Origin: an uncultured Dehalococcoidales bacterium
GTDB lineage: Bacteria > Chloroflexota > Dehalococcoidia > Dehalococcoidales > UBA5627
Direction: 5' to 3'
NCBI GenBank assembly: GCA_964528955.1
Contig: CAZGVH010000001.1
Span: 3,606-40,341 of the forward strand
Length of the DNA: 36,736 nt
The notes below the pieces were generated by a model. It was not told the DNA's origin, ran no database searches, and saw only the letters and a list, made by a program, of their open reading frames with translations. Every line of letters starts with the position of its first letter. The stretch's first letter is position 1. The translations under genes and the position numbers were made by a program. This document shows positions 2,909 through 27,297 of the stretch, piece after piece.

Positions 2909-3109
2909 TTAGCTAGCATGACATTGCTCGCACTTGAGATTGCAGGCGTTGGTGGTTTTCCAAACAGGGTGAATAGGAAACCCGATACAACCCATGCCTA
3001 TTGCTCCCGATACTGTAGGCAGTGTTTTTTTGTATTTTAATAGCCAATGGAACAGTTGCTTCCATCCTATTAAATAAGCATAATAAAATGCTGATGTTGC
3101 TTGTCTCAT
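2909..3109 (-). pseudogene. Truncated N-terminal remnant of a radical SAM protein (possibly SPASM-type)
   Basis: 66-aa ORF ending ...IHPVWKTTNACNLKCEQCHAS-stop. It contains only the CxxxCxxC cluster loop (CNLKCEQC) that normally opens a 300-450-aa enzyme. No continuation exists in any frame downstream. It sits exactly at the GC-content break. Confidence 0.6.
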
Positions 3110-3218
3110 CGATAGAGATGGTGGATTATAAAAGGATTAAACTTTCTTTTATTTATAGTAGTATTAATAATCTTTTTCAGCATTTCTCATTTCTACGACT
3201 TGTAATCCATATTACTCT

Positions 3219-4670
3219 TTACCGACAAATTAGTTTTGATCTTAAAAAATAAAAAGCAATAACAAATGCAAGTAAGATGATAGAACCAGCAATAATTAAC
3301 AGCGTGGCATTTGATGACTTCTCAAAATTTGCAGTAACGGAATAATTTCCATTCATAGTTATTATTACAGATTTGTTAACGCTATTATCAATTATCTCGT
3401 TATTGCTGCTCCAACCTTTAAATTTAAAACCATCATCGGCTTGCGCTTCTAGTATAACAACTGCATCTTCATCATAGATAAATGTTCCTTCACCAGGTGA
3501 TGTTACACCCCCCCCTTTTTCACTTGATATCGTTAGTTCTTTTTGCGGGGTTATACTTGTCTCAGGCAAAGGTATTTCTTCATCAATTACCGTTATTTTC
3601 CAGTAATTTAGTGTACCTTCAAAAGAATAGGGCCCTGTAGAAGATATAATATACGGTTCAAAAGTAATACCAGGAGTTGAATATGTAGTTGTTTCCCCAT
3701 TTATTGTCAGTGTGATTCCATTTTCTCCGACAGTAAATTTATCCCAATCTATTTCATACTGGTGAATTATACCTGAATCCGTTTGAACCTTCTTCAGATT
3801 TAAAGTAAATAAGCCGAAAATATCGGAGGATAAAACTGTTAAACTGTACGCGGTCTCTTTATCGCTGAGTATTTCAATCCTATAGTTATCATAAGCTGGA
3901 GCAATTGTAACTTCTTTGCTATGTGAGTAATAGAATGATCCCGGTATTTCAGCTTGAATTTTACTATTAACAATTCCTGTTACTCTGCCAGCAGAGTCAT
4001 ACACCCGAAAAGAAATAGGCGAATCATCTAAAGCTCTCGAAAAGGTCGTTAAAATCTGGGGTATCGGATTTTCCGGCCTCCATTCAGGGTCAGGAGGATA
4101 AGTCCAACCGATATATTTTCCAATGATTAAATTATTATTACCAAAATTCAATTCATTTAAATTGCTTATGGTTACAATCCCATAGGAATGAATAATCTGG
4201 TTGTTACCCAAATAAATTGCGACGTGTCCATACGGATTATTGGTTGCTTTGTCAAAAAATATAAGCGCTCCTCTGGGTGCGTATGTCCAACCCTCCGGTT
4301 CCGTATCATGAAGGGTCAGGTTGAATTTATCTGGCAGGTCTATGGCATTAACTTCTACCAGTTTGGCATTAGCACCATTCCAACTTGTTGCTTCTGTGTT
4401 CATAAATGCATTGGCGACAAAACTGGCACACATTTCATACCATTCCATACTTCCAAGTCTGTATTCTGACCATGAAATAGCGATGTCGGCCCAGTTAGAG
4501 AAATCATTCGGTTGTTTACTATTATCAATCGTTATTAAGTGCTCTTCAGATATTGATACAGCCTGAATAGCTACGATAGGCAATGAAAATATGGATAATA
4601 ATAATGTTATCGGTATTACCATTCTTAACGGTTTTAGTTTAATTAAAAATTTTTTATTGTAAATCAACAT
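3219..4670 (-). CDS. Surface-anchored NlpC/P60-family hydrolase with a Listeria-Bacteroides-type repeat and a C-terminal TM helix
   Basis: 483 aa. N-terminal signal/TM (VIPITLLLSIFSLPIVAIQA). NlpC/P60 Cys (WYEMCASFVANAF) and His (GHVAIYLGNNQIIHS). C-terminal repeat ...DDGFKFKGWSS... followed by the hydrophobic helix LLIIAGSIILLAFVIAFYF. The start overlaps the upstream rSAM gene by 17 nt; an alternative start is possible at Met17. Confidence 0.7.
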   Translation of the reverse strand: MLIYNKKFLIKLKPLRMVIPITLLLSIFSLPIVAIQAVSISEEHLITIDNSKQPNDFSNWADIAISWSEYRLGSMEWYEMCASFVANAFMNTEATSWNGANAKLVEVNAIDLPDKFNLTLHDTEPEGWTYAPRGALIFFDKATNNPYGHVAIYLGNNQIIHSYGIVTISNLNELNFGNNNLIIGKYIGWTYPPDPEWRPENPIPQILTTFSRALDDSPISFRVYDSAGRVTGIVNSKIQAEIPGSFYYSHSKEVTIAPAYDNYRIEILSDKETAYSLTVLSSDIFGLFTLNLKKVQTDSGIIHQYEIDWDKFTVGENGITLTINGETTTYSTPGITFEPYIISSTGPYSFEGTLNYWKITVIDEEIPLPETSITPQKELTISSEKGGGVTSPGEGTFIYDEDAVVILEAQADDGFKFKGWSSNNEIIDNSVNKSVIITMNGNYSVTANFEKSSNATLLIIAGSIILLAFVIAFYFLRSKLICR

Positions 4671-6786
4671 AACCCTCTTTGAAAAGTGTATTTAAAAAAG
4701 AAATGCAATCTGATTCCACCTTCTGAAAAGAGGCCTGGTATTTTTGAGCCAGCGAATAAGATATTTGGTGAACACTTCTTTTCCCATCGCATAGAGATAA
4801 AATCTCATGAATCAGAGGATTGACACAGGAAGCCACTCCTGAAAAAGCATTATAAAGAATGGCAGTAGGATTGGGATAAATCGGGCTATCGTTAATTGAA
4901 ATTTTCGTATTCATATCAAGTATATTAAAGTTGATATAGTCAACTGCGATATGTCTTTTAATTCTGGGAACCGACCTGGAAGTTACTCTCTTATCGATTG
5001 TAAACATGTCTTCTTTTTTTGACGATAGCATTACCAGTAAAGGGTCGCTTTCCCGGTAATGGGATAAATATAGCAATATTTCCTCATAGTCCAGTTTGAA
5101 TACCTCTTTATTATCATATTCCTGAATTACTTTCTCACGGTAGATATCACTCATTTCGGTTGCCTCGGCACATGTCATGCCGGAAGAGACCGTATAGTCA
5201 TAGGCAAGCGTAAAATCGGGCAACAGCCCCGGATTGATACTGCTTATCCCGTATTTTTGCGGGCACCTCACTACTTGCGCCCCCTTATTCAAAAGAAAAC
5301 TGGCAATATTGAATGAATGGATTATACCTTTATGCCTGATCAGGAAATCGATAGTTTGCTGCGCTTCCTCCGCATTTTCGGTTGGGAAACCCAAAAAGGT
5401 GTAGAGATGATTCCAAATACCAGCATTATAAACATTTTTACAGACTTCAATGGCTGTTTCACGGTCGGTTCCTTTTTCCATCAAGTCAAGTACCCGGTTG
5501 CAAGCTGACTCCAGCCCCAGGTAAAGTAGTCTGAAACCCGCTTTGTACATTTTATGGCAGAGTTCAGAAGTGAACTGGCGTTCTAACCTGACATTGGTCG
5601 AGCACTTGAAATCAGTCCCCCTGTTTATCAATTCGTCGGTCAGTTTAATCATCAATGCCGGACTGATTGCTTCATCGGAAAAAGCAAAGTGTGATCCACC
5701 GTATTTTTGAGACAATTGCTGCATGTCATCAACAACTTTATCTGCAGTACGCGTTTTATAGCTCCACCTGTAGGATTCATTATGTGAACAAAAAGCGCAC
5801 TTGCCCCAGTAACAGCCGCGTGATGCCAGTATCGGAAGCACCGTTTCCGGGCTAAGATACAAATTAAGAGGCAAACCATCGAAATCCGGCGTGGGTAATG
5901 AATCGGCATCAGGAGAAGGAGTGACATCGTTGAATTTCACCTTATTTTTATCAGAGTAGATTAAATTAGGAACATCCTGCAGGTCCTTATCTCCGGAAAG
6001 ATGCTCGGCCAGTTTTAACAAAGGGAATTCCCCTTCATTTATGATGGCGCTGTCAAAGTAATCGGTAAATAACTCCGGATATTTTCCGAACACCTCCGAA
6101 AACAGGGTAATAATATAACCGCCAACTGTAACGTGTGCCTTTTTATATGATGACTTCAATAAACGTGAAAGGGTTAAGGCTGGAATAAACTGGCTGTCTC
6201 CGGCAATCGAAATACCGATTAAATCGGGGGATTGCTCTTCGATAAAAGGTAATAAATGTTTTTCGTATAATTTTAAAAATGGATTTATTTCACTATTTGT
6301 GGTTATCTTCTTTATATTTTCAAAAGAGCGCTGAATTCGAATATTAAGAGGCCAGACTAAATCTTCTCCTCCCGGGAAACAGGCTATAGATGTGATTTCC
6401 TGTGCTTGCTTTAATATGTTTCTGGCATCAGTAACTTTATCTATATCATAGAAATCCCTCTTATTTCTGAATGTTTTTTTTGCTTTATCAACATGTGCTG
6501 CAATATAGGGGACGCTGGATTTCGCCTTGAAGAGGTCGCAGTAACGCTGCTGTTCCATTCCTGGATTAAGCTCGTCTTTTGAATTCAGAATATCGAATTG
6601 TTTCTGTAATTTTAATGCCAACTCTGATAGATAAGTTTTCGACATAAGTAAATCATATGCTTCGATATTAAAGTCTTTTTGAATTACATCAATACCATTA
6701 CTTTTCAGATAAGCAGTCAATGAAGGCAAACTTAAATATGGTCGATAAGGAGTCCAAAATGGAGGGAATATGAGTAACACTTTCAT
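4654..6786 (-). CDS. B12-binding-domain radical SAM enzyme fused to a C-terminal PqqD-like (RRE) domain
   Basis: 710 aa. N-terminal class-B rSAM layout (KVLLIFPPFWTPYRPYLSLPSLTAYLKSNG). Cluster loop SRGCYWGKCAFCSH. The last ~70 aa (NPLIHEILSLCDGKRSVHQISYSLAQKYQASFQKVESDCISFLNTLFKEGYV) match the PqqD peptide-chaperone pattern. Confidence 0.75.
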   Translation of the reverse strand: MKVLLIFPPFWTPYRPYLSLPSLTAYLKSNGIDVIQKDFNIEAYDLLMSKTYLSELALKLQKQFDILNSKDELNPGMEQQRYCDLFKAKSSVPYIAAHVDKAKKTFRNKRDFYDIDKVTDARNILKQAQEITSIACFPGGEDLVWPLNIRIQRSFENIKKITTNSEINPFLKLYEKHLLPFIEEQSPDLIGISIAGDSQFIPALTLSRLLKSSYKKAHVTVGGYIITLFSEVFGKYPELFTDYFDSAIINEGEFPLLKLAEHLSGDKDLQDVPNLIYSDKNKVKFNDVTPSPDADSLPTPDFDGLPLNLYLSPETVLPILASRGCYWGKCAFCSHNESYRWSYKTRTADKVVDDMQQLSQKYGGSHFAFSDEAISPALMIKLTDELINRGTDFKCSTNVRLERQFTSELCHKMYKAGFRLLYLGLESACNRVLDLMEKGTDRETAIEVCKNVYNAGIWNHLYTFLGFPTENAEEAQQTIDFLIRHKGIIHSFNIASFLLNKGAQVVRCPQKYGISSINPGLLPDFTLAYDYTVSSGMTCAEATEMSDIYREKVIQEYDNKEVFKLDYEEILLYLSHYRESDPLLVMLSSKKEDMFTIDKRVTSRSVPRIKRHIAVDYINFNILDMNTKISINDSPIYPNPTAILYNAFSGVASCVNPLIHEILSLCDGKRSVHQISYSLAQKYQASFQKVESDCISFLNTLFKEGYVDLQ

Positions 6787-6836
6787 AGTAAAATAACCTT
6801 AAATATAATATCTAATATTAGCTAAATAAAAAATGT

Positions 6837-7217
6837 TCAAGTATTTTTCTTTATTGCAGAAATAATATACGAAATTCCAGCGGCGATAAGCGGTAAAGTG
6901 ACAAAAAACAGGGTGTAATAAAAGCTATGGAAAAAGCCTCTACCAGGTATATATCTGGTGGTGGTGATAACTATGTTGGATTCCATATAGATTGATATGA
7001 CTCCGACGATTATAAATAATATGCCTGTAATAACAGGTTTCTTAGTACCGAAAAATAGAAATATGAAGGGAAGAGGTATCAGAAGTAACAAGAGAGTGTA
7101 TCTGTGCAATTGGTCAAGTTGGTAATTAACTATAAACACCATGAAGGTAAATGACGCAATAAAACCAATGTAGAGGGCAATCCTGTGGAAAGTGTTTTTT
7201 TTATCTAACTCCGCCAT
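6837..7217 (-). CDS. Small integral membrane protein (about 4 TM), unknown function
   Basis: 126-aa hydrophobic ORF. AGGA lies 8 nt upstream of the ATG. It is tightly packed between the DUF4405 and rSAM genes. Confidence 0.55.
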   Translation of the reverse strand: MAELDKKNTFHRIALYIGFIASFTFMVFIVNYQLDQLHRYTLLLLLIPLPFIFLFFGTKKPVITGILFIIVGVISIYMESNIVITTTRYIPGRGFFHSFYYTLFFVTLPLIAAGISYIISAIKKNT

Positions 7218-7226
7218 TCTAATATC

Positions 7227-7892
7227 CTAATGATTAGTTCCTTCTTCAACCCGTTTTTCTCCTGCAGTCGTTCGAATCACCCAACGCCAGTGCATAGCTA
7301 TGTGAAGTATTACTATAGCTACAATAACAATAGCAACCCAGGCATGAAGATCAGACCACACATCTCTCTGTAATCCCCAAAAAGTACGCCCGATACCTTC
7401 TATCATTTCAAAATAGTTATCGCGACCTCGCGGCATTATAAGCCATATTACAAATCCGGAAAGGCATTCGAACAGGAAGAGAATAAATAATATCGATGCG
7501 GTTATATAACGCTCGGTTATACGTATCCTTTTTTGTTTAATATTATTAATAATACGTTTGGTTATATCGACAAACCAATCCCAGTGTATAAAAATATGTA
7601 TCAGGATGACAATAACCAGTATGATACTGATCCATGAATGATACTCTACCCATAAATATCTTGGCCAATCAAAAATGCTATCGACGTTACCATAAGGCCC
7701 TAGCCCCTGTTGATTACAATATTCTGTGCAATCCGGCTCATGGGGTCTCAACCTGCCCTCATTATTGTGTTGTCCTATACCTCTGGGAAGAATAAACCAT
7801 ATTATAATGCTGGAAACGATAACACCCAAAGACGAAGACAATGCTAAAAATGCCGTAAAATAATAGAAATATTTCTTTACCTTATTGTTCAT
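7227..7892 (-). CDS. DUF4405-like membrane protein (putative di-haem cytochrome-b-like), copy A
   Basis: 221 aa, 4 predicted TM helices. Two helix-embedded His pairs: LIHIFIHWDW and ILHIAMHWRW. Paralogue of 23046..23720. Confidence 0.65.
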   Translation of the reverse strand: MNNKVKKYFYYFTAFLALSSSLGVIVSSIIIWFILPRGIGQHNNEGRLRPHEPDCTEYCNQQGLGPYGNVDSIFDWPRYLWVEYHSWISIILVIVILIHIFIHWDWFVDITKRIINNIKQKRIRITERYITASILFILFLFECLSGFVIWLIMPRGRDNYFEMIEGIGRTFWGLQRDVWSDLHAWVAIVIVAIVILHIAMHWRWVIRTTAGEKRVEEGTNH

Positions 7893-7938
7893 GGTATTTT
7901 AACCTTTGAAATACCTTAAAGATTAATTGACCTAACTT

Positions 7939-8184
7939 CTATAATAATTTTATCAAACCGATAACTATAGATAAAATATTAAGCATTAATCCGCTAAGTG
8001 CAAAAATAAGCTGTTTGCGGCTGATTAAACCCAGAATACTCAGTGTTAATCCAAATAACGCAACAGGTAAATTGAACCAGTGGTACCAATCATATGGAAT
8101 AAATTGGCTGAGAAAAGGAAACAGGAATGAAGACAAAACACCAATACAAGCTACCAGTCCAATAACGAACCCTGAGATACTCAT
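7939..8184 (-). CDS. Small membrane protein (about 3 TM), unknown function
   Basis: 81-aa hydrophobic ORF on the operon strand. No recognisable motif. Confidence 0.45.
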   Translation of the reverse strand: MSISGFVIGLVACIGVLSSFLFPFLSQFIPYDWYHWFNLPVALFGLTLSILGLISRKQLIFALSGLMLNILSIVIGLIKLL

Positions 8185-8262
8185 ATAATTTATCCCGTAT
8201 TAATTACTACTGAAACGCTCTAAGTTCTTAGTTCTTATTATTCTAACTATAAGTGTCGGTTT

Positions 8263-8304
8263 AAAGACTACTTTGCCTGATAATTACCAGGCAAAGTAGT
8301 CTTT
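8263..8304 (-). terminator. Perfect 17-bp hairpin after the copy A anchor gene (terminator-like)
   Basis: AAAGACTACTTTGCCTG (8263..8279), an 8-nt loop, then CAGGCAAAGTAGTCTTT (8288..8304). Only a short T run follows on either strand, so it may attenuate or stabilise rather than terminate. Confidence 0.5.
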
Positions 8305-8323
8305 TACGCTGATTATTTATTTG

Positions 8324-8902
8324 TTATTTTTTGCCAACAATAAATCTGCGTAAAGCAGCTGTAATTATCAGTAATAATCCGCCTGCACAGCCAAGGTAAT
8401 AGCCAATAGTGAGCTTAGTTTCGACATTACTGATGTACGGGTCACCCATATCTAATCGGAATACACCATTCAAGGGAGCATTGTAAAATCCCTTAAGATT
8501 CATGCTAATAACTATAACGGCAGTTATAGCTACTATTATAAATGATATTCCGACACCGCCTACAAGTGCTGATGGTAGAGATACCCCTATCTTACCAATG
8601 CCGATTCTCTCTTTTTCATCGCTGCTGGCAAACATGCCGAAAAGAATAACTACCACACATACTGCCAAATATATCCACATGAAATTGTCAAACCAGCTCG
8701 GCATTATTTGATCGTAGCCAGCTATCCACGCAGAAAAATCAGACGGAACAAATGACTCAATGCCATAAGCATAGATATTGACAGCGGTAGTGCTCAATGC
8801 AACTATATAAGCTGTCCACCATGGTTGAAACCAGGCGTAAATAAATAACACAGCACCAATTAAAACCAATCCCCGGAATATCCAGGTCCTGATACCACCC
8901 AT
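8324..8902 (-). CDS. Putative membrane subunit of molybdoenzyme A (novel, His-free)
   Basis: 192 aa, about 5 TM helices. Conserved N-terminus RTWIFRGLVLIGAVLFIYAWFQPWW is shared with 27410..27973. Same position after the Fe-S subunit in both copies. No His residue in the sequence. Confidence 0.6.
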   Translation of the reverse strand: MGGIRTWIFRGLVLIGAVLFIYAWFQPWWTAYIVALSTTAVNIYAYGIESFVPSDFSAWIAGYDQIMPSWFDNFMWIYLAVCVVVILFGMFASSDEKERIGIGKIGVSLPSALVGGVGISFIIVAITAVIVISMNLKGFYNAPLNGVFRLDMGDPYISNVETKLTIGYYLGCAGGLLLIITAALRRFIVGKK

Positions 8903-9010: not shown

Positions 9011-9820
9011 TCAGGATAATGCTATATCTTCTAAACTAACATCCTTCTCGGTGCTGATATCAGCTATAGTTTTTGATTTACCGCCGGCTTCTATTTTTAA
9101 CGAGAAAGTGCCCACAGCTAAACCCTCGAACCAGAAATCTCCGAAGTTATCAGTAGTGGCAGTAGCATTGCCGGCGCCAGAAAGAGTACAGGTTGCACCG
9201 ACGACAACTTCCTGTTTTGCCGGGTCGAATACTGTTCCCGCAATAAACCTCTTTGGGAGATTCAAATAATAAGTTCTCGGTTTGGTGCCAAATTCAGGAT
9301 TCATTACCTCAGCTTTAGCTATCTCGGCGCTAAATGCAGACTCGTCACCGAATCGCAAAGCTCCGTTATGGCAAGAATCGACGCATCTGGGTTCCGTAAT
9401 CGGCCATCCTCTGTCCCTGAGATGTGCGCAACTTGTGCATTTCTGTGCCAGTTTAAGGTTCTGATTCCAGTAAATAACATCATAAGGGCAGGCGTCTATA
9501 CATAACTGATGGCCGGCGCATTTCTGGGGGTCTATGATCACCATAGCGTCATCCCTCTTAGTAATAGCGCCCTCAGGGCAGGCTGTTATGCATGGAGCCT
9601 CGTCACAATGATGGCAGCGGCTCGGTACGTAGGCTACCTTGATATGAGGTATTTTCCCGCGTACGATTTCATTTTGCTTGTTCCAGAACTGCCCTGTTTC
9701 CGGTTGTGGTTTGGCGTAGGGCATCCAGTCATTACCGCAGTGTTCGTCCTTGCAAACAAGCTGGCAGGTATAGCATCCTATGCATTCTGCCGCATCATAA
9801 ACATAAACTTTCTTCGCCAT
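9011..9820 (-). CDS. Four-cluster Fe-S subunit of the DMSO-reductase-family enzyme (transhydroxylase BthL-like), copy A
   Basis: 269 aa. Cys groups are CIGCYTCQLVC, CHHCDEAPCITAC, CAGHQLCIDAC (His replaces the 2nd Cys) and CTSC...CVDSC. A C-terminal ~80-aa beta-sandwich-like domain (GTVFD...FGDFWFEGLAVGTFSLKIEAGG). The ATG overlaps the alpha stop (TAATG). Confidence 0.85.
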   Translation of the reverse strand: MAKKVYVYDAAECIGCYTCQLVCKDEHCGNDWMPYAKPQPETGQFWNKQNEIVRGKIPHIKVAYVPSRCHHCDEAPCITACPEGAITKRDDAMVIIDPQKCAGHQLCIDACPYDVIYWNQNLKLAQKCTSCAHLRDRGWPITEPRCVDSCHNGALRFGDESAFSAEIAKAEVMNPEFGTKPRTYYLNLPKRFIAGTVFDPAKQEVVVGATCTLSGAGNATATTDNFGDFWFEGLAVGTFSLKIEAGGKSKTIADISTEKDVSLEDIALS

Positions 9821-12663
9821 TATTTTCCTCCTTCTACCCAGCCCTTAAATAGCGGGCCATACTGAGGGTCGTAATCTCGTAAAAAGGCTTCTGGGAATTC
9901 ATTACGCCATTGATCCATCATTTCACCAGTTACTTTCTCGATCTCAGCCAGGTAATATTGACAAGCTAAACCGTAACCATGTTTGTGCATCGGCGGCATC
10001 ACATTGATACTGTTGGGGTTGCCGCCTCTGTTGATGTCCGGGCTAATCTGGTCGTCTCCTCCTGCTTTATCCATACGTACAGCTTGCTGCATTACTTTTT
10101 CAGTTACCATAGCACCGGCAAGAACGCTGCCTCTTTCGTTGTAGATTCTAACTATATCACCATTTTTTATCCCTCTGGCTGCAGCATCTACCGGATTAAT
10201 CCAGACCGGGGAATAGGCATACCCGTCAAAACCGATGATATATGGTCTGGCTTCCCTCGTCCAGGGGACATCAACGTACTGTGAGTGATGCAGCCAGTCG
10301 TTGGTCTGTGATACCACTCTGATAGGATAGGTCTTGGCTCTTTCTCCCCAGGGATCTTCATCATGAGTCCAACCTTCAGAAGCAGGGCCGCCGGGCACAT
10401 ACGTTGCAGTGGGTGCTCTTTCCTTATCGTCTGGGAACCAACCCATCAATGTCTGTGATTCGTATTCCATTTTACCGGATGGCGTGCTTAACGGATTTTT
10501 AGCTGGGTCTTCGTAGAATTTAAACGATGCGGGTGTACTTTCCACAGTCTTCGGGTCTCTGTCTACGGCATAATAGCCTTTTTCGTTTAAATCCTCCCAG
10601 CTGATTTTGTCTTTGATTGCCCCGCCATCATAAGCCGCCCTGGTTTGCGCCTCACTCCAATCTTTATAGTTGGTATAGCCGGGGATTATTTTATCGAGCA
10701 TTCCCAGCTTCTCGGCGACCAATAATGTCGCTTCCATGTCACTCTTGGCTTCTCCCTTCGGTAGAGATGCCACTTTGTTTATGTAAGTGATGCCGCATAC
10801 ATCGCCGCCGGTCTTCGGATCTAATAATTCATGCAGTGTAGCAATCGGCAATATTATATCCGAATATTTCATGCAGTCTTCCAACCACATGTTCATGGTT
10901 ATATGGCATTCCAGCTTCGGACTCTGGAAACCCTTACGCGTGTAGTTACCATAGGCGCGGCTACCTGTATAGCTTTGGCTGGTAGCCCAACACAAATGTA
11001 TTTCAGAAAATCCCGGTTCAGGATAGACACGTTTGGTGCCCTGGTCACTGGTAGGCCACCATTCGACAGGCGGGTTCAATAAGCAGTCAGCCCAGTCGTC
11101 TCTGGGCATAAACGGTTTGTCAAGGTCGGTAGCGCTGTACCTGACACCGGTTGCCGTTGAAAAGGCGGTTGTAATTACTGAATTACCTGCTACGCTGGCA
11201 AATCCTCCGGCGCTTCCTGAAGGCAAACTACCCGTTATTGAAGAAATCTGGTGAACGCCGGGTTTTCCGTATCCCTGCATTCCCAGCAGATAGAGCTGCA
11301 TTCTGTTTACGTTATCACCATAGATAGTTCTGCCGTTAGCACCGCCGCCTTTAACACCGAACAAAATCGATGTCGGTTTGGATGCCCATTCACGCGCCAG
11401 AGCTTTGATGGTATATTCAGGGATTAGGGTTATTTTTGAAGCCCAGGCAGGTGTCTTGGCAATCTTGTCCGAGGCAGTCCCTTTAACATATGCCTCCCAC
11501 TTATCAAAACCATAGGCATGGGTTGCTATATAGTCTTTATCATAGGTGTCTTCGTCGAACCAGACATAAGCGATAGCAGCCGCAAGAGCAGCATCCGTAT
11601 TAGGAACTATAGGTATGAATTTATTACAATGGATGCCTACCGTTTTATTTACTTCGGGACCGATGCTTACTACAGGTATCCCCACTTTTTTGTTCATCCA
11701 GTGTAAAGCTATAGGAGCAATCAATCCGCTATACCATGAGTGCGTTTCATTGCATGCCCAGCCGACCAGCATTTCGCAGTTGTTGGCATTGTCATGAAAC
11801 ACACCGCCGCTGGCTTCATAGTCATCTCCGATAACATATCTTCCGCCCAATTGTCCGCCTGAAGAGGTGGTAGCACGCCCGGAAGCGCTGGTAATATAGC
11901 CCTGATATTTGTCATAAGCATAATACTGCAACAAGCCTTCTTGACAACCGTGGCTACCGGGTAGACTGTGTCCTTCGGAATGGCCTCCGCTGTAGGTGGC
12001 GGTGAGAGCAGAGGGGCCATATTTGTCTCCTACTCTCTTAATTTCATTGGCTATTATAGTTGCAGCTTCGTCCCATGAAATTCTCTTGTATTTACTCTTA
12101 CCACGGTTCTGCGCATTGATTTTAGCCGGGTCGCCGCCGGGTTCCCAGTCAACTCTCTGTAAAGGATACAGAACTCTGTTGGGGGAATCGGTGCGTTTTC
12201 TACGGCATATGGTCTGAACACCGATCATGGATTTCAACATCGGGGTCCATGATTTACCGCGTGCCGTATATGTCCAGCCCTTGAGATCCGGATATTCTTT
12301 ATTGTAATGTATCGGCCTGATTCTTATTATTTTGCCATTCTTGACATCGGCATGTCCCGGGCAGTTGATAGCATTAAAAAATACTTCTTCCGGTTCAAGA
12401 GCTGGCGCAGTGGTTCCACCGCCGCCACCAGCTGTGATGGTCTTGGTAACTGTTTCACCGCCACCGCTAACTACAGTTTTTGTAACGACATTAGTTGTAG
12501 TTACAGTGGATGTTTTACCGCCACCGGTAGCCGAAAGTATTCCGGAACCGACAACACCGCCCACGATTACTGAACCGGTGCCAACCAGAAAATCTCTTCT
12601 GTTTATTACTACTTCTCCGGATTGGCTCTTGTCTTCTTTGTTAAGATCTTTTTCTTCTTTCAA
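9820..12663 (-). CDS. TAT-exported molybdopterin catalytic subunit, pyrogallol-phloroglucinol transhydroxylase (AthL)/resorcinol hydroxylase-like, copy A
   Basis: 947 aa. Twin-arginine motif NRRDFLVG. No N-terminal CxxCxxxC FS0 motif. Collinear blocks recalled from Pelobacter acidigallici AthL (YKRISWDEAATIIANEIKRVGDKYGPSA; IAYVWFDEDTYDKDYIATHAYGFDKWEAYV; GIKNGDIVRIYNERGSV). TTG start 7 nt after GGAG. Confidence 0.8.
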   Translation of the reverse strand: MKEEKDLNKEDKSQSGEVVINRRDFLVGTGSVIVGGVVGSGILSATGGGKTSTVTTTNVVTKTVVSGGGETVTKTITAGGGGGTTAPALEPEEVFFNAINCPGHADVKNGKIIRIRPIHYNKEYPDLKGWTYTARGKSWTPMLKSMIGVQTICRRKRTDSPNRVLYPLQRVDWEPGGDPAKINAQNRGKSKYKRISWDEAATIIANEIKRVGDKYGPSALTATYSGGHSEGHSLPGSHGCQEGLLQYYAYDKYQGYITSASGRATTSSGGQLGGRYVIGDDYEASGGVFHDNANNCEMLVGWACNETHSWYSGLIAPIALHWMNKKVGIPVVSIGPEVNKTVGIHCNKFIPIVPNTDAALAAAIAYVWFDEDTYDKDYIATHAYGFDKWEAYVKGTASDKIAKTPAWASKITLIPEYTIKALAREWASKPTSILFGVKGGGANGRTIYGDNVNRMQLYLLGMQGYGKPGVHQISSITGSLPSGSAGGFASVAGNSVITTAFSTATGVRYSATDLDKPFMPRDDWADCLLNPPVEWWPTSDQGTKRVYPEPGFSEIHLCWATSQSYTGSRAYGNYTRKGFQSPKLECHITMNMWLEDCMKYSDIILPIATLHELLDPKTGGDVCGITYINKVASLPKGEAKSDMEATLLVAEKLGMLDKIIPGYTNYKDWSEAQTRAAYDGGAIKDKISWEDLNEKGYYAVDRDPKTVESTPASFKFYEDPAKNPLSTPSGKMEYESQTLMGWFPDDKERAPTATYVPGGPASEGWTHDEDPWGERAKTYPIRVVSQTNDWLHHSQYVDVPWTREARPYIIGFDGYAYSPVWINPVDAAARGIKNGDIVRIYNERGSVLAGAMVTEKVMQQAVRMDKAGGDDQISPDINRGGNPNSINVMPPMHKHGYGLACQYYLAEIEKVTGEMMDQWRNEFPEAFLRDYDPQYGPLFKGWVEGGK

Positions 12664-21911: not shown

Positions 21912-22976
21912 TTACTCCTTTAAATTAGGAAACTTATCTTTTGCATCTATTTCTTTTTCTCCGGTATATAGACCATATTCAACCAACTCTGATGCCAGTG
22001 CATCACAATAATTGCATTTATTACAGTCTTTCCCACAAGATGTAACTTTTTCAAAAAATCCATATTGCTCTAATAACCTGTTATTCAGGCATATACCGTT
22101 CACCATAGAGTACTGTTCCAAACTTCCAGTTAAAATATCCAACAGGTCTCCATCCCATTTTTCATCCATATATGCCTTTACAGCCCGTATAATCTTACTC
22201 TCCGGGGAAGCTCTGCCAACGATCTTAATAGAACTGGTTATTTCTATATATTTATGCATATCCTCAGGTCTTATCCATCCCGATTTTAATATCTGTGACG
22301 GGTCTTGACGGAATACTTCATTACAATATTTAAAAAACACCGGCTTTTCAGAACCTGTATTTTTAGAAACGTGAGAAATATAATTAATATGGAATTTTCT
22401 GAATGGACAATTACTCAAACATCCTTCATTTACCATCAATTTCAATTTGACGCCGGTTACTTTCTTAATTTCCTTAAGAAGCTCAAGGTCATGATTTATA
22501 CATGGATCCGGTATAATAACGTCTGCTCCCAAATCAGTGAAAATCTCTGCCCGTTTGAGCGAATTGATGTCACATAGTACAGATGCATATATTTCTATAT
22601 CCGGGATGCGATTCTTGATCATGTTAATAAAAATAGGATTGGCGATCGTTACCGATTCCAAACCGTGTTCTTTATGTAACATTTCAATATATTCTACTGT
22701 TTTCTTCTGCATATCGCTGGTATACCAGTCTTCTCCCTCGCAGGTCGAATTCAATAACAGATTAACCTTAAATCCCAATACATGTATCCTCTTGACTATT
22801 AACAGGAAGCTATCCATATCCAGTTTCCCCATAGCTCTACCTGAGGCAAAATATTCCTGAGGACCAGAGAGATAGACCTCGGTTATTTTGTTGCCGCTGC
22901 ATTCATTCATGCTATAGTATTCTGATAAAGTTTTGGCATTCATATTGTAAGGTACTGAAAATTCCAGATTTGTCAT
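21912..22976 (-). CDS. Peptidase-U32-family protein (UbiU/UbiV/TrhP/RlhA-like) with a C-terminal CX3CX2CX2C motif, paralogue 1
   Basis: 354 aa. U32-like collinear blocks: EVYLSGPQEYFASGR, KVNLLLNSTCEG, GLESVTIANPIFINMIKNRIPDIEIYASV, GADVIIPD, LMVNEGCLSNCPFR, IKIVGRASP. C-terminal SCGKDCNKCNYC. AGAGGAG lies 8 nt upstream of the ATG. Confidence 0.65.
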   Translation of the reverse strand: MTNLEFSVPYNMNAKTLSEYYSMNECSGNKITEVYLSGPQEYFASGRAMGKLDMDSFLLIVKRIHVLGFKVNLLLNSTCEGEDWYTSDMQKKTVEYIEMLHKEHGLESVTIANPIFINMIKNRIPDIEIYASVLCDINSLKRAEIFTDLGADVIIPDPCINHDLELLKEIKKVTGVKLKLMVNEGCLSNCPFRKFHINYISHVSKNTGSEKPVFFKYCNEVFRQDPSQILKSGWIRPEDMHKYIEITSSIKIVGRASPESKIIRAVKAYMDEKWDGDLLDILTGSLEQYSMVNGICLNNRLLEQYGFFEKVTSCGKDCNKCNYCDALASELVEYGLYTGEKEIDAKDKFPNLKE

Positions 22977-23045
22977 TTATAATCTCCTCTATAAAAAGTC
23001 TGTCAATGTATGTTCTTTCTTTAATTTAGTATAAACTGCATTTAA

Positions 23046-23720
23046 TTATAGATTACGCGTATTTAATAAATGTTTTTTATGTATAGTCATATTCAGAACC
23101 CAACGCCAGTTCAATACTATATGTATAATTATTATTGAAATGATAGCTACCGCTAACCAGGCATGAATATCAACCCATATATTTCTCTGCAATCCCCAAA
23201 AAGTACGACCTAATCCAATCAGCATATTTTCATAATCAAGTGCACCGCGCGGTAATACTAACCAGATAATAAAACCGGAAAGACAATCCAGTATAAAAAG
23301 AATAAACAATAATAGTGCAGCAATATATTGTTCTATTGCTTTTACCTTTATTATCGGCCAATTAATATAATCCCTAAACTTTCTTGTTAAACTAATGATC
23401 CACTTCCAATGCAGAACAATATGCAGAATTATTATTCCCAAGAGAACTATCGATGCCCAGTTGTGTACGTCTATCCACGTATATCTTGGCCAATTCATTA
23501 TAGTAATGTAGTTTCCGGTAATGCCGTAACCTTCGGCATTGCACCACATATATCCAGAAGCGCTCCCCAGTTCTCCGTGTGCTCCCTGTCCCATGGGAAG
23601 AATAAACCATAATATATAACTGGATACCAAGGTAACCAGGATAGACAACAGTGCTATTACATCCAGCAAGAAGTTAACATATCTTTTAATAATCTTTGCC
23701 ATGTCAATTCCAAAATTCAA
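23046..23720 (-). CDS. DUF4405-like membrane protein (putative cytochrome-b-like), copy B
   Basis: 224 aa, 4 TM. The first motif ILHIVLHWKW is intact; the second reads IIHIVLNWRW (His to Asn). Paralogue of 7227..7892. Confidence 0.65.
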   Translation of the reverse strand: MNFGIDMAKIIKRYVNFLLDVIALLSILVTLVSSYILWFILPMGQGAHGELGSASGYMWCNAEGYGITGNYITIMNWPRYTWIDVHNWASIVLLGIIILHIVLHWKWIISLTRKFRDYINWPIIKVKAIEQYIAALLLFILFILDCLSGFIIWLVLPRGALDYENMLIGLGRTFWGLQRNIWVDIHAWLAVAIISIIIIHIVLNWRWVLNMTIHKKHLLNTRNL

Positions 23721-23764
23721 TAAAGCTAGGACATTATATTTAATGATTCATATCCAAATTAACC

Positions 23765-24583
23765 TTATACCAGCGGGACCCTTAAATTTTCGTGAAATGA
23801 ATCCAGAAAGCTTATATCCTTCTCTGATATAGCGAAGTCAAATATGTCTATATTTTCCCTGATCCTGTCTTCATTCGATGATTTGGGAATTGTTACCAAT
23901 CCTTTTTGAAGCGCCCAACGGATTAGTACCTGAGCAGCAGTTTTATGATACTTCAGTGACAGCAAGACTAATTTTGAATCTGTTAATTTTACTTTTCTTG
24001 TAAGCGGGCAATATGATTCAACTTGTATTTTATGAATTTGGCAGAACTCGAGAAGTTCCTTTTGATAAAAGTAAGGATTAAATTCGACTTGATTAACAGA
24101 AGGAATAACTGAAGAGTTGTCTATCAGATATTCGAGTTGTGGAATGGTATAATTGCTGACACCTATAGCCCTGCATTTACCTTGTTTTAGCAATGTTTCC
24201 ATTGCATTCCAGGTTTCATCAAGCAATTCTTGAGCAGGCCAGTGTATCAAGTAAAGATCGATATAGGAAAGCTTTAATAATTTAAGGCTTCTTTCACAGG
24301 CATTAAGTGTAGATTTGTATCCCTGTTCTGCCGGCCACAATTTGGTAGTGATAAAAATATCTTCTCTCGGTATACAGCTTTTATTGACAGCTGTTCCAAT
24401 ATCCTTTTCATTCTGATATATCATGGCGGTATCGATAAGCCTGTATCCGTTTCTTAGGGAACATAATACTGACTTCTCTGCTACCTCGCCATAGAGTTGC
24501 CAGCTACCGAATCCTATAATAGGCATTTCTACTCCGTTATTAAGTCTTACTCTTGTTTCCGAATTGATTTTATTATTTGACAT
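23765..24583 (-). CDS. Aldo/keto reductase (NAD(P)H-dependent)
   Basis: 272 aa. Catalytic tetrad context LIDTAMIYQNE, ITTKLW, LYLIHWP. Typical AKR length and N-terminal MPIIGFGSWQL. Confidence 0.9.
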   Translation of the reverse strand: MSNNKINSETRVRLNNGVEMPIIGFGSWQLYGEVAEKSVLCSLRNGYRLIDTAMIYQNEKDIGTAVNKSCIPREDIFITTKLWPAEQGYKSTLNACERSLKLLKLSYIDLYLIHWPAQELLDETWNAMETLLKQGKCRAIGVSNYTIPQLEYLIDNSSVIPSVNQVEFNPYFYQKELLEFCQIHKIQVESYCPLTRKVKLTDSKLVLLSLKYHKTAAQVLIRWALQKGLVTIPKSSNEDRIRENIDIFDFAISEKDISFLDSFHENLRVPLV

Positions 24584-24638
24584 TGCATTTTAAAAAAGAA
24601 AGCGTTTTAATAAATTAGTCGTGTATTTATATTTACGG

Positions 24639-25679
24639 TTAATAAACCTCTTCTTTTAATTCTTTTGTATAATGCCTGAATTCAAATAACTTTCTGGATA
24701 ACTCATCGCAATAGTTACATTTATGACATTCTTTATTACAAGAAGTGACTTTTTCGAAAAAACCATACTTATCGAGGCTTTTATTATCCAGATAGACTCC
24801 GTATTGCGAATTGAATACGGCGAAGCTATCACACATTATATCCAGCAGACCGCCTTCCCAACTTTCCTGCATATATGCTTTTATACATCTCATAACCTTG
24901 TTCATCGGAGTGCTTCTTCCAACGATTTTGAAATAGCTAGTTATTTCTCCATATTTTTGGAGATCCTCCGGCCTGATCCAGCAAGACTTTAAAACCTGAG
25001 AAGGATCATGTGCACTTACAGCAACACAATTGTCAAAAAAGATACTCGGCTCATCTTTTACCTCTTTTGAGGCATGTGAAACATAATTAAAATGGAATCT
25101 TCTGAAAGGACACTTGTAGAGGCATCCCTCATTTACCATAGGTTTGATCTTCAGTCCGGTAATATCCTTTATTTCCTTAAGCAGCTTTAAATTCCTGTTA
25201 ATATTCATATCAGGAGTCACAACATCAGCTCCTGCTTTTTTAAAGAGGATAGCTCTCTGAACGCAATCTATCTCAGATAAAACAGAAGCGCAAATTTCCA
25301 GATCGGGAAAATTTTTCCTTATCAATTTCATTAATATGGGATTAACTAAAGTTACTGTTTCTACACCGTAGTCCCCATGCGCTTTTGCCAGGTATTCCAT
25401 GATTTTTTTTACAGTCTTCATGGAATACCAGTCGCTGCCTTCGCAGGTAGTATTCATTACCAGGTTTACGCGTAATCCATTGTGATGAATCTTTTTTACG
25501 GTCTCTATGAATCTATCCATTCCCTGCATAGCGGTAATTCTCCCCGATCCGGAATATTCCTGCGGGCCTGAAAGATATACCTCTCTGATTCTATTGTTAT
25601 TCAGGTTTTTGGATTTAAATATTTCATTCAATGTTGCGGGGTCATCATTATAAGGAATAGAAAATTCCAAATTGGCCAT
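24639..25679 (-). CDS. Peptidase-U32-family protein with a C-terminal CX3CX2CX2C motif, paralogue 2
   Basis: The track ORF starts at a TTG (25694). The ATG at 25679 follows GGGGGGAA and aligns with the paralogue start (MANLEFSIPYN vs MTNLEFSVPYN). Same U32 blocks, and C-terminal SCNKECHKCNYC. Confidence 0.65.
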   Translation of the reverse strand: MANLEFSIPYNDDPATLNEIFKSKNLNNNRIREVYLSGPQEYSGSGRITAMQGMDRFIETVKKIHHNGLRVNLVMNTTCEGSDWYSMKTVKKIMEYLAKAHGDYGVETVTLVNPILMKLIRKNFPDLEICASVLSEIDCVQRAILFKKAGADVVTPDMNINRNLKLLKEIKDITGLKIKPMVNEGCLYKCPFRRFHFNYVSHASKEVKDEPSIFFDNCVAVSAHDPSQVLKSCWIRPEDLQKYGEITSYFKIVGRSTPMNKVMRCIKAYMQESWEGGLLDIMCDSFAVFNSQYGVYLDNKSLDKYGFFEKVTSCNKECHKCNYCDELSRKLFEFRHYTKELKEEVY

Positions 25680-25758
25680 TTTATTTCCCCCCAATTTTTA
25701 TTTTAAACAAAGCCTTAGGGCTCAGTTGAACAAGCAATTTAATTTATGACTATTAACT

Positions 25759-27297
25759 CTATTTAGTATTCAAAGTATCCGGGTTGATTCGATAATTCAT
25801 CTCATCCTTTTGCAGATGATAGCGCATATTTTCCGATTCGGATTTACTACAAATTCCATATTTTTCCATAAGATCAATCGAATTTCCTATTGAATTGTTA
25901 ATCGACTTTATAATCATGTTCCTGTTAAGACAGGCTGTTTCATAGGATATCCATTGGTACCATGAGTTAAAAGACATACCACTGACATAATCTTCCAGAT
26001 TCTTGAATCTTAATCGATAGCCGTACTTGTCCGGATAGTCGAAGGCCTGAGAGCCGGGGTCGAGCAGAATCATAGGCCCGAACGAATACATTGCCGGCGC
26101 TCTCCCCGGAGTTTTACTGTTTAATTTACAGATTTCCTCCCATACCTCCCAGTTCTTTTTTATAGTATCAGGTGTATCTTTTGCCAGAGCTATCATCGAG
26201 AAAACAGCGATGGCAATATTGTATTTCTTGCAGAGCCTGATCGTATCAAAAAGCTCCACGTTTGAATACTTCCTGCCGTGTGCCCCTCTTACGCTTTCCA
26301 CACAAGACTCCGGAGAAATAGTCAGCACCAAAGGCACTCGAATTTTTGACAATTCCCTTATATATTCCTCATCTGCCGGTCCCCATATTTCCATAGTCAG
26401 TTGGGTTAAATTTATCCTGGTATTCTGAAGAGTCTGCATAAGTTTAATCCAGTATTCCCTGCCACCCATGCGCGGATCCTGGAAAAGAAAAATCTGCTTA
26501 ATTCCCTGGTCACTGAGTTTTTTTATGTCCTGAGCTATCTTATCGGGACTTCTGAAAGCCGGACAGATTCTTCCAAAGTACCTCTTATAGCTATATCTGG
26601 AACCACCGCAGGTAACACAGTTGTGAGTACAACCGCGGCAAACCGGTATTGACCAGTGGGAGGGCGAATTTTTCGGAAATAATGCATGTTTGGGCTCTAT
26701 AAGGTCAAGCCGGGTAAATTCGTATTCATCGATACTGGTATTGGGAAGCAATAAGTCATTTATTATTATCTCTCCATTGCTGTCCCTGAAGGTAAGGCTG
26801 GGAACATTTTCGAGTCCGTCATTCTTTTCTAAGGCTTTCATCAGTTCCAGAAACGGTTTCTCTGCTTCTCCACGTATAACTGCATCTATAAAATCATATT
26901 TCCGAATAATCTCTTCAGCGAAAATACTGGAGGTTAGCCCTCCGAGAATAACCATGGAATGCGGATGCAGTTTTTTTAGCAGCTTTGCAACCTCTATGGC
27001 TCCCTGGGAATGTACACACCAGTGCAGTTCAACAGCAAATACCCGCGATTCAAGTGCTCTTAGATAACTCTCAACGTCAAATCCGTTATCTGCCATCATC
27101 CTGTCCCCAAGATTATCGACAATTACTTTATAGCCGTTTCGGTCAAGGTAATCTGCAATACTGAGCATACCGATTGATGGGATAATAAACTGGCGTGTAC
27201 TCTCCTGCACAGTTAAAGCTATTGGCCCTTCATTTATGACTTTTTTACGGAAGTCATAGATTGACGGCGGATGTATTAAAACGGCGTCATAATTCAC
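25759..27297 (-). CDS. B12-binding-domain-type radical SAM protein, subfamily unknown
   Basis: 512 aa. GTG start 8 nt after AAGGA. N-terminal AVLIHPPSIYDFRKKV...IIPSIGMLSIADYLDRNGYKVIVDNL. Cluster loop CRGCTHNCVTCGGS. Confidence 0.75.
   Translation of the reverse strand: MNYDAVLIHPPSIYDFRKKVINEGPIALTVQESTRQFIIPSIGMLSIADYLDRNGYKVIVDNLGDRMMADNGFDVESYLRALESRVFAVELHWCVHSQGAIEVAKLLKKLHPHSMVILGGLTSSIFAEEIIRKYDFIDAVIRGEAEKPFLELMKALEKNDGLENVPSLTFRDSNGEIIINDLLLPNTSIDEYEFTRLDLIEPKHALFPKNSPSHWSIPVCRGCTHNCVTCGGSRYSYKRYFGRICPAFRSPDKIAQDIKKLSDQGIKQIFLFQDPRMGGREYWIKLMQTLQNTRINLTQLTMEIWGPADEEYIRELSKIRVPLVLTISPESCVESVRGAHGRKYSNVELFDTIRLCKKYNIAIAVFSMIALAKDTPDTIKKNWEVWEEICKLNSKTPGRAPAMYSFGPMILLDPGSQAFDYPDKYGYRLRFKNLEDYVSGMSFNSWYQWISYETACLNRNMIIKSINNSIGNSIDLMEKYGICSKSESENMRYHLQKDEMNYRINPDTLNTK

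Follow-up and report, generated by a model that had tools for sequence, protein, structure and literature searches.

The window analysed here is a stretch of 36,736 nucleotides from an uncultured Dehalococcoidales bacterium (assembly GCA_964528955.1, contig CAZGVH010000001.1), i.e., C1:3606-40341 of a 1.32-Mb metagenome-assembled genome (MAG) that is 73.5% complete. Three adjacent genes of its minus strand are considered: (i) 4654..6786, encoding a cobalamin-type radical S-adenosylmethionine (rSAM) enzyme of 710 aa with a fused C-terminal recognition element (RRE) of the kind known from ribosomally synthesised peptides that carry post-translational modifications (RiPPs), hereafter the rSAM-PqqD gene; (ii) 3219..4670, encoding an exported NlpC/P60 protein of 483 aa; (iii) 2909..3109, the 66-aa beginning of another rSAM protein. 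A preliminary description, made from this sequence only, had placed these open reading frames (ORFs) correctly and had read them as the remnant of one RiPP-like cluster. The comparison with related loci leads to a different reading, with a probability of about 0.55: the three genes are unrelated and stand at the tail of the operon of an exported molybdenum (Mo) enzyme; the 710-aa protein would be an RRE-guided, cobalamin-dependent rSAM accessory of anaerobic redox operons, the NlpC/P60 gene would have been brought in by rearrangement, and the third gene would be a dead stub. That the three do not form one RiPP unit is held with high confidence. From the sequence comparisons, the apparent «RiPP cluster» is an artefact of rearrangement. 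The value of the locus is that of an uncharacterised enzyme family, the remnant reading being ordinary.

The 710-aa gene is intact and very probably encodes a functional enzyme. The Pfam model Radical_SAM (PF04055) scores 75.9 bits (cut-off 29.5, E 5e-21) at residues 322-482, within an rSAM core that spans residues ~301-520 (5227..5886, minus strand as for all features of this locus). The three-Cys [4Fe-4S] motif of class-B rSAM enzymes is present, C325, C330 and C333 being invariant. The core is preceded by a cobalamin-binding Rossmann-type domain (residues ~171-300, 5887..6276). The Pfam B12-binding model stays below threshold there (25.0 bits for a cut-off of 32.1); the alignments with NCBIfam class-B models begin near residue 173, and the profile of a 30-sequence family alignment (A1, 38-78% identity, collinear across all 710 residues) matches OxsB over positions 176-494 (E 2.8e-19). 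The AlphaFold (AF2) model built on A1 has a mean local confidence (pLDDT) of 90.6 and a predicted TM-score (pTM) of 0.89. At full length it aligns over both domains with OxsB, TsrM, CysS and TokK, which places the cobalamin domain within its family. The top fold matches found by Foldseek in the Protein Data Bank (PDB) are cobalamin-dependent rSAM enzymes: OxsB, TsrM, MgmA, CysS, AprD4 and TokK. The assignment to the B12-type rSAM enzymes, already proposed in the preliminary description, is thus borne out by the Radical_SAM score and by the fold. The gene is preceded by an intergenic region (6787..6836) in which its ribosome-binding site (RBS, AAGG) was read and compared with that of a related locus (L131, see below). 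Homologues of the enzyme number in the thousands. A gene that is intact and widely conserved is not a remnant, and this part of the preliminary description is to be abandoned.

The cluster loop, C325-Y-W-G-K-C330-A-F-C333 (5788..5814), indeed carries, as had been pointed out, four residues from its first Cys to its second. The loop C325-Y-W-x-x-C330-A-F-C333 is invariant (30/30 family sequences), and the solved structure of OxsB has GC-DYSR-C-TF-C at the aligned position, i.e., the same Cx4Cx2C spacing. The spacing is therefore a trait of the family and not a lesion. The family signature is the invariant GCYWxKCAFC (Cx4Cx2C) loop and, in the clade of the window enzyme, also the fused C-terminal RRE.

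The RRE (residues 641-710, 4657..4866) had been suspected from the sequence and is confirmed in three ways. Pfam PqqD (PF05402) scores 33.2 bits (cut-off 23.4) at residues 655-707. The family profile matches the PqqD chains 5SXY and 3G2B of the PDB at positions 652-709. The domain model (pLDDT 89.9) has the element order strand-strand-helix-(strand)-helix-helix, i.e., a winged-helix fold, and superposes on PqqD (TM-score 0.77) and on the leader-bound lasso RREs TbiB1 and FusB1 (TM-score ~0.8); TruD, LynD, TglI and CteB are further Foldseek matches. The mean pairwise identity across the family is 32% for the RRE versus 54% for the rSAM core, and such a faster divergence is expected of a partner-specific docking domain. 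Two Cys inside the RRE are conserved, namely C666 (in LCDG, 28/30) and C694 (in DC-x-x-F, 26/30). This is unusual for PqqD-like domains; a disulfide between the two residues, or a metal site, is conceivable.

The enzyme falls below the cut-off of every curated subfamily tested (TIGR03975, ApyD, MgmA, PhpK, BchE and others). The best NCBIfam match is TIGR03975, a subfamily of RiPP C-methyltransferases, with 123.8 bits for a cut-off of 281.85; ApyD (NF050148) reaches 80.9 bits for 750, and TIGR04014 (MgmA) 51.6 bits for 360. The relatives devoid of the PqqD domain, from Nitrospinota and other phyla, and those of archaea obtain only 97-126 bits with TIGR03975. The rSAM-PqqD proteins are thus an uncharacterised family of RRE-bearing class-B rSAM enzymes, and no publication dealing with it in Dehalococcoidia turned up in the literature search. 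Within a sample of the class Dehalococcoidia, 10 of 401 genomes (that of the window included) possess the family; all ten belong to the Dehalococcoidales, and the distribution is patchy within genera.

Four groups of known proteins are worth comparing. OxsB (oxetanocin A biosynthesis; PDB 5UL2-5UL4) is the best match of the B12 and rSAM domains, both in sequence and in fold (Foldseek E 2e-19), and shares the Cx4Cx2C spacing at the aligned loop; on the contrary, identity is ~15% only, OxsB has no RRE, its substrate is a nucleotide (ring contraction) and its genomic context is unrelated. TIGR03975 («rSAM_ocin_1») and ApyD give the top NCBIfam scores over the B12/rSAM core and act on peptides; the window enzyme remains far below their cut-offs, shows no NHLP or Nif11 precursor, whether close by or elsewhere in its 73.5%-complete genome, and has respiratory enzymes as neighbours. 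MgmA (PDB 9CCB) and Mmp10 (PDB 7QBU) are cobalamin-dependent rSAM enzymes and structural matches as well. Both transfer a methyl group to a residue of methyl-coenzyme M reductase (MCR), a large catabolic enzyme near which they are encoded; archaeal rSAM-PqqD orthologues likewise adjoin mcrBDGA. The family of the window differs from both by an additional N-terminal helical insert and by the C-terminal RRE, and the TIGR04014 model covers just the catalytic core (residues 232-482) and not the RRE. Finally, the last 70 residues resemble the stand-alone RREs PqqD, TbiB1 and FusB1 (Pfam PqqD passed, TM-score 0.77-0.81 for PqqD and leader-bound TbiB1); here, however, the RRE forms the C-terminal part of a class-B rSAM enzyme and no PqqA-like or lasso precursor is present.

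The genomic company of the enzyme was established by clustering the ORFs of 30+ full-length loci (all-versus-all BLASTP; loci are numbered L) and by additional look-ups. The enzyme recurs in or beside the operons that encode the principal anaerobic redox enzymes of the respective lineage: exported (twin-arginine, Tat) molybdoenzymes with the bis-pyranopterin guanine dinucleotide cofactor (Mo-bisPGD) in the window and in sister genera, a tungsten-dependent aldehyde ferredoxin oxidoreductase (W-AFOR), reductive dehalogenases (rdhA) and mcrBDGA. A Mo-enzyme A/B/C operon adjoins it in L003, L009, L013, L018 and L133 as well as in the window. In L013, L018 and L133 it is flanked on both sides by genes of the operon, at short gaps or overlaps, and is followed either by U32-like and NapG/NapH-like Fe-S genes or by genes for the small membrane protein c14 and a DUF4405 protein; in L133 the c14 gene overlaps the stop codon of the enzyme by 4 nt. 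The closest relatives, L003 (78% identity) and L005 (same genus, 74%), keep the Mo-operon and DUF4405 genes upstream in synteny and have a HAD hydrolase and an FAD oxidase downstream. In L010 and L104 the enzyme is flanked by genes for a W-AFOR, a ferredoxin and a U32-like protein. In Dehalococcoides and Dehalogenimonas, rdhA is found beside it (L006, L008, L016, L105-L113, L134, L135). These two genera carry at least two paralogues of the enzyme, sometimes in tandem, and in five complete genomes all the copies (7/7) are located 0.5-1.4 kb from an rdhA domain, versus 5-7% of random 2.1-kb windows. In archaea of the Methanoperedens type, an RRE-bearing orthologue (34-36% identity) is located downstream of mcrB-mcrD-mcrG-mcrA (L021), with the same flanking genes in L022; the genes around it at other Methanoperedens loci are unrelated. 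Frequent co-travellers are U32-like Fe-S enzymes, other rSAM enzymes and electron modules of the NapG/NapH-like or DUF4405 types.

A mechanism may be proposed on these grounds. The RRE would dock a peptide segment as a β-strand; the [4Fe-4S]/SAM site would cleave SAM to a 5'-deoxyadenosyl radical for hydrogen-atom abstraction; methylcobalamin would then deliver the methyl group. The enzyme is, by its sequence family, probably a methylase, and a peptide or protein is somewhat favoured as its substrate. Following the precedent of Mmp10 and MgmA on MCR, the substrate could be a segment of a protein from the neighbouring redox system. Such a protein is favoured because no linked precursor gene was found. 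That it belongs to the adjacent redox enzyme itself is an analogy and less likely than not. More daring, and rather doubtful, is the proposal that the RRE-guided enzyme installs a hitherto unseen modification, probably a C-methylation, either on the catalytic subunit of the principal redox enzyme (the exported Mo enzyme in the window, RdhA in Dehalococcoides and Dehalogenimonas, MCR in Methanoperedens) or on one of its partners. If this were true: (i) the principle of a methylated active-site residue, as in MCR, would extend to bacterial respiratory enzymes; (ii) organohalide-respiring and other Dehalococcoidia would carry a radical-installed modification on RdhA or Mo enzymes of interest for bioremediation; (iii) RRE domains would be usable outside the classical RiPP pathways. 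Recognition of Tat leaders by the RRE was considered as a general rule and rejected, MCR, the archaeal neighbour, being cytoplasmic.

Several observations weigh against an accessory function in redox operons. No redox enzyme stands beside the gene in L012, L014, L025 and most of the Methanoperedens loci. The Mo operon persists without the enzyme in L131, unless a second copy exists elsewhere in that genome. The adjacency to rdhA may be due in part to co-location in the high-plasticity regions of Dehalococcoidaceae, and loci of kin are not independent of each other. Methylation is deduced from family resemblance only, and OxsB and AprD4, which rank high among the structural matches, are no methylases. 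Finally, a distant precursor is possible since the genome of the window is 73.5% complete.

A precursor was searched for at several scales. In the window, the intergenic segments 3110..3218, 6787..6836, 7893..7938 and 8185..8323 contain no plausible precursor ORF, as the preliminary description had reported. A 25-aa ORF at 3106..3183 lies partly on the stub's decayed 5' end and was discarded. Over the 30+ full-length loci scanned, no conserved family of 15-90-aa ORFs accompanies the enzyme at distances of up to 1.5 kb in the Dehalococcoidales, near-identical strains excepted. Neither of the NHLP and Nif11 leader models (TIGR03793, TIGR03798) finds a match in the genome of the window, at its 73.5% completeness. 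The small ORFs of Methanoperedens were rejected as precursors: they encode Zn-ribbon and desulforedoxin-like proteins and are located on the opposite strand. In L020:8197-9107 and L052:8196-9109 (minus), three such small genes are convergent to the orthologue of the enzyme. One encodes a 55-62-aa Zn-ribbon protein; the other two are paralogous with an MVGLESSM... N-terminus, one of them ending in a desulforedoxin-like C-x2-C...CC motif. The PqqD-less homologues of Nitrospinota give no clue to a precursor or to a separate PqqD either: the conserved 105-aa upstream gene encodes a cupin, the others TPR, methyltransferase-like and SPASM proteins.

These results bear directly on the idea that the enzyme is a genuine RiPP maturase whose precursor is encoded elsewhere, or is too short or divergent to be noticed. 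The RRE would then bind a free leader, and the product would be a C-methylated peptide, for which the MFS or RND transporters found near the gene in Dehalococcoides might serve as exporters. The RRE fold and the membership in the PqqD family agree with it, as do the resemblance to TIGR03975 and ApyD (the best among the NCBIfam models), the MFS and MarR genes that flank the enzyme in D. mccartyi and the incompleteness of the MAG. Nevertheless, no conserved small ORF accompanies the enzyme in Dehalococcoidales within the distance scanned and no NHLP or Nif11 leader was detected in the genome; both NCBIfam scores are far below their cut-offs; the neighbours are genes of respiratory operons and not proteases, cyclases or other tailoring genes. 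Moreover, the hosts have very small, streamlined genomes, and no linked precursor is seen even at the tandem paralogues. A peptide maturase acting on a remote precursor is thus judged improbable.

It is also conceivable that the enzyme acts on a small molecule or a cofactor, perhaps some quinone-like carrier, corrinoid or metal cofactor on which the neighbouring oxidoreductases depend, with U32-like and rSAM proteins as partners, the PqqD-like domain serving for protein contact or for the binding of a carrier. U32-like neighbours recur, with the same Pfam domain Peptidase_U32 (L008, L016, L018, L104), other B12-rSAM or rSAM genes and DUF4405 cytochrome-b-like membrane proteins are nearby, and two of the structural matches use such substrates, a nucleotide for OxsB (the first of them) and an aminoglycoside for AprD4. 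The PqqD-less relatives, for their part, stand in non-peptide contexts (cupin, TPR, SPASM). On the other side, the RRE fold and the LCDG motif are kept in bacteria as well as in archaea, which argues for a maintained docking function. The domain binds peptides in all the solved RRE examples that were matched, and no conserved biosynthetic context (prenyltransferase or polyketide genes) is found beside the enzyme. A role on small molecules therefore seems unlikely.

That the three genes of the window are not one unit, as the reading preferred here holds, is best seen at the junction between the enzyme and the NlpC/P60 gene. A segment at 4627..4669, delimited by blastn end-points and by reading the sequence, has no homology to either type of relative; it contains the final 4-5 codons and the stop of the enzyme together with the first ~15 codons of the long NlpC/P60 ORF. 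On one side, the DNA of L003 and L103 is homologous to the window (blastn) only from 6793/6810 down to 4669. This end-point is a single base away from the ATG of the NlpC/P60 gene, and the last 4-5 codons of the enzyme differ from those of its relatives. On the other side, the DNA of L131 follows the window from 9996 to 6781 at 80.5% identity and then jumps to 4626-3305. The gene order of L131, which is the closer relative as regards the operon, is MoA-MoB-MoC-82aa-DUF4405-126aa-NlpC/P60, without the enzyme gene. Here the NlpC/P60 start is made of the enzyme's own RBS and ATG-AAA (window 6781-6836), joined in frame to codon 16 of the window ORF (L131:4380-4450 versus window 4600-4670), and the protein start MKRLV... 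aligns with R16-M17-V18 of the window ORF.

This arrangement suggests that L131 arose by a single deletion of ~2155 bp in a window-like ancestor. The direction of the change is an inference, drawn from the shared RBS region, which is homologous also to the region upstream of the enzyme in L003 and L103. The enzyme would then be dispensable, or duplicated, in the L131 lineage. The enzyme gene is a presence/absence cassette at the operon tail. By comparison with L131, the orthologous NlpC/P60 start is probably Met17 (ATG at ~4622). The overlap of 17 nt previously noted between the two genes exists if the ATG at 4670 is used; with the ATG at ~4622 it is replaced by a gap of 31 nt after the stop of the enzyme.

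The 483-aa protein is, as announced, an NlpC/P60 protein (Pfam NLPC_P60, PF00877, 30.4 bits for a cut-off of 23), with an InlB B-repeat (Flg_new_2 family, 48.5 bits), an N-terminal signal or anchor and a C-terminal transmembrane segment, these last two read off the sequence. Its His motif GHVAIYLGN..IIHS aligns with HVGIYLGN..IHA of the solved NlpC/P60 proteins 3NPF and 7CFL. A candidate catalytic Cys (EMC-ASF) is present in the sequence; the PDB alignments span only the His region. Among 5.8 billion proteins, the full-length relatives are P0121 (99% identity) and one other, P0122 (68%), which is encoded in L131. No full-length orthologue is found in 61 genomes of the order, where the B-repeat alone matches. 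The gene would therefore encode a lineage-specific exported surface protein, placed downstream of the enzyme by a rearrangement with its breakpoint in the last codons of the enzyme. A link to Dehalogenimonas loci given by BLAST (cluster c12) was rejected, the common part being only the InlB B-repeat of small lipoproteins. Two such single-repeat lipoproteins are encoded directly upstream of the enzyme (L109:7561-7953 and L110:7536-7952); since the order abounds in surface proteins with B-repeats, this likeness is probably a coincidence.

The 66-aa ORF (2909..3109) stops directly past CNLKCEQC, i.e., with the Cx3Cx2C rSAM motif present, and it had rightly been taken for the N-terminus of another rSAM protein. 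It is 56% identical over all of its 66 residues to an intact 411-aa rSAM/SPASM protein from a different genome of the order, G409. For this AhbD/NirJ-like protein TIGR04545 gives 284 bits and TIGR04055 262 bits, both below cut-off. No continuation of the stub, i.e., neither the TIM-barrel core nor the SPASM domain, was found in any frame or elsewhere in its own genome, where it stands alone with stop codons inside the match. Decayed similarity extends to ~3148. About 135 bp separate the ORF from a PhzF gene, with a near-consensus promoter within the gap. The ORF is the dead 5' end (66 codons) of an AhbD/NirJ-type rSAM/SPASM gene, severed beside the PhzF promoter. The truncation is no assembly artefact of the MAG, since L132, a contig from another sequencing run that is 99.6% identical over window positions 8197 to 2817, has the same arrangement, stub included. 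The second rSAM of Dehalogenimonas (c31, 404-441 aa) was tried as the intact counterpart and rejected, as it belongs to a different family. In G409, the intact gene adjoins a MenA-like UbiA prenyltransferase gene (L129:949-3107, contig C5 of G409), and its product has an N-terminal extension. This pair hints at a quinone- or tetrapyrrole-related role.

The preliminary description had suggested a comparison with intact homologous loci; in relatives the enzyme never precedes an NlpC/P60 gene or a stub-type rSAM gene. The HAD hydrolase and FAD oxidase that follow it there, the end of homology at 4669 and the enzyme-free NlpC/P60 locus L131 together speak against one RiPP-like remnant. That the three genes, which are co-directional and tightly packed, with a Cys-peptidase fold that could in principle cleave a leader and a second rSAM that follows the enzyme in the Dehalogenimonas loci L008, L111 and L134, descend from one cluster whose precursor was lost with the truncated part is most improbable: the Dehalogenimonas partner (c31) and the stub are of different families, a MenA-like prenyltransferase, and no RiPP maturase, is the partner of the stub's intact relative, the NlpC/P60 gene exists without the enzyme (L131) and, in all other lineages covered, the enzyme without NlpC/P60, the two side by side, like the full set of three, occurring nowhere but in the window's own lineage (window and L132), homology breakpoints flank the enzyme gene exactly, and the NlpC/P60 protein, being exported and membrane-anchored, lies across the membrane from where a cytoplasmic maturase would need its partner. 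A caution for genome mining follows: an RRE-bearing rSAM gene, a «peptidase» gene and a second rSAM gene can be juxtaposed by chance, and synteny should be checked first.

Upstream of the enzyme, the minus strand of the window continues with a membrane module: a DUF7670-like protein of 126 aa (6837..7217), a DUF4405 cytochrome-b-like protein of 221 aa (7227..7892) and the small protein c14 with three transmembrane segments (81 aa, 7939..8184). This module is also found in L003, L005, L131 and L133. It is preceded by the operon of an exported pyrogallol-hydroxytransferase-like molybdoenzyme, with a membrane subunit (8324..8902), an Fe-S subunit bearing a CarboxypepD_reg domain (9011..9820) and a catalytic subunit with an RRDFL Tat motif (9820..12663). 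The operon is syntenic in L003, L009, L013, L018, L131 and L133.

Two small groups of proteins recur in these Mo cassettes, both with no Pfam match. The c14-type proteins (81-114 aa, three transmembrane segments) have the conserved N-terminus MSISGF(I/V)IG and are always encoded before the DUF4405(/DUF7670) gene (window 7939-8184, minus; L133:9133-9387; L003:3877-4215 and 6429-6773). Cluster c16 is an internally duplicated protein of 244-348 aa encoded just upstream of the enzyme (L003:5334-6344, L013:5246-5980, L133:5920-6933), with at least five copies in the genome of the window (contigs C2, C45, C141, C201). The window contains the tail of a second Mo cassette (21912-27297, minus), made of a TIGR04190-like B12-rSAM (512 aa, 397 bits for a cut-off of 500), two U32-like proteins, an aldo/keto reductase and a DUF4405 protein, without an rSAM-PqqD gene. 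Given these different tails, the two Mo cassettes appear to use alternative accessory sets.

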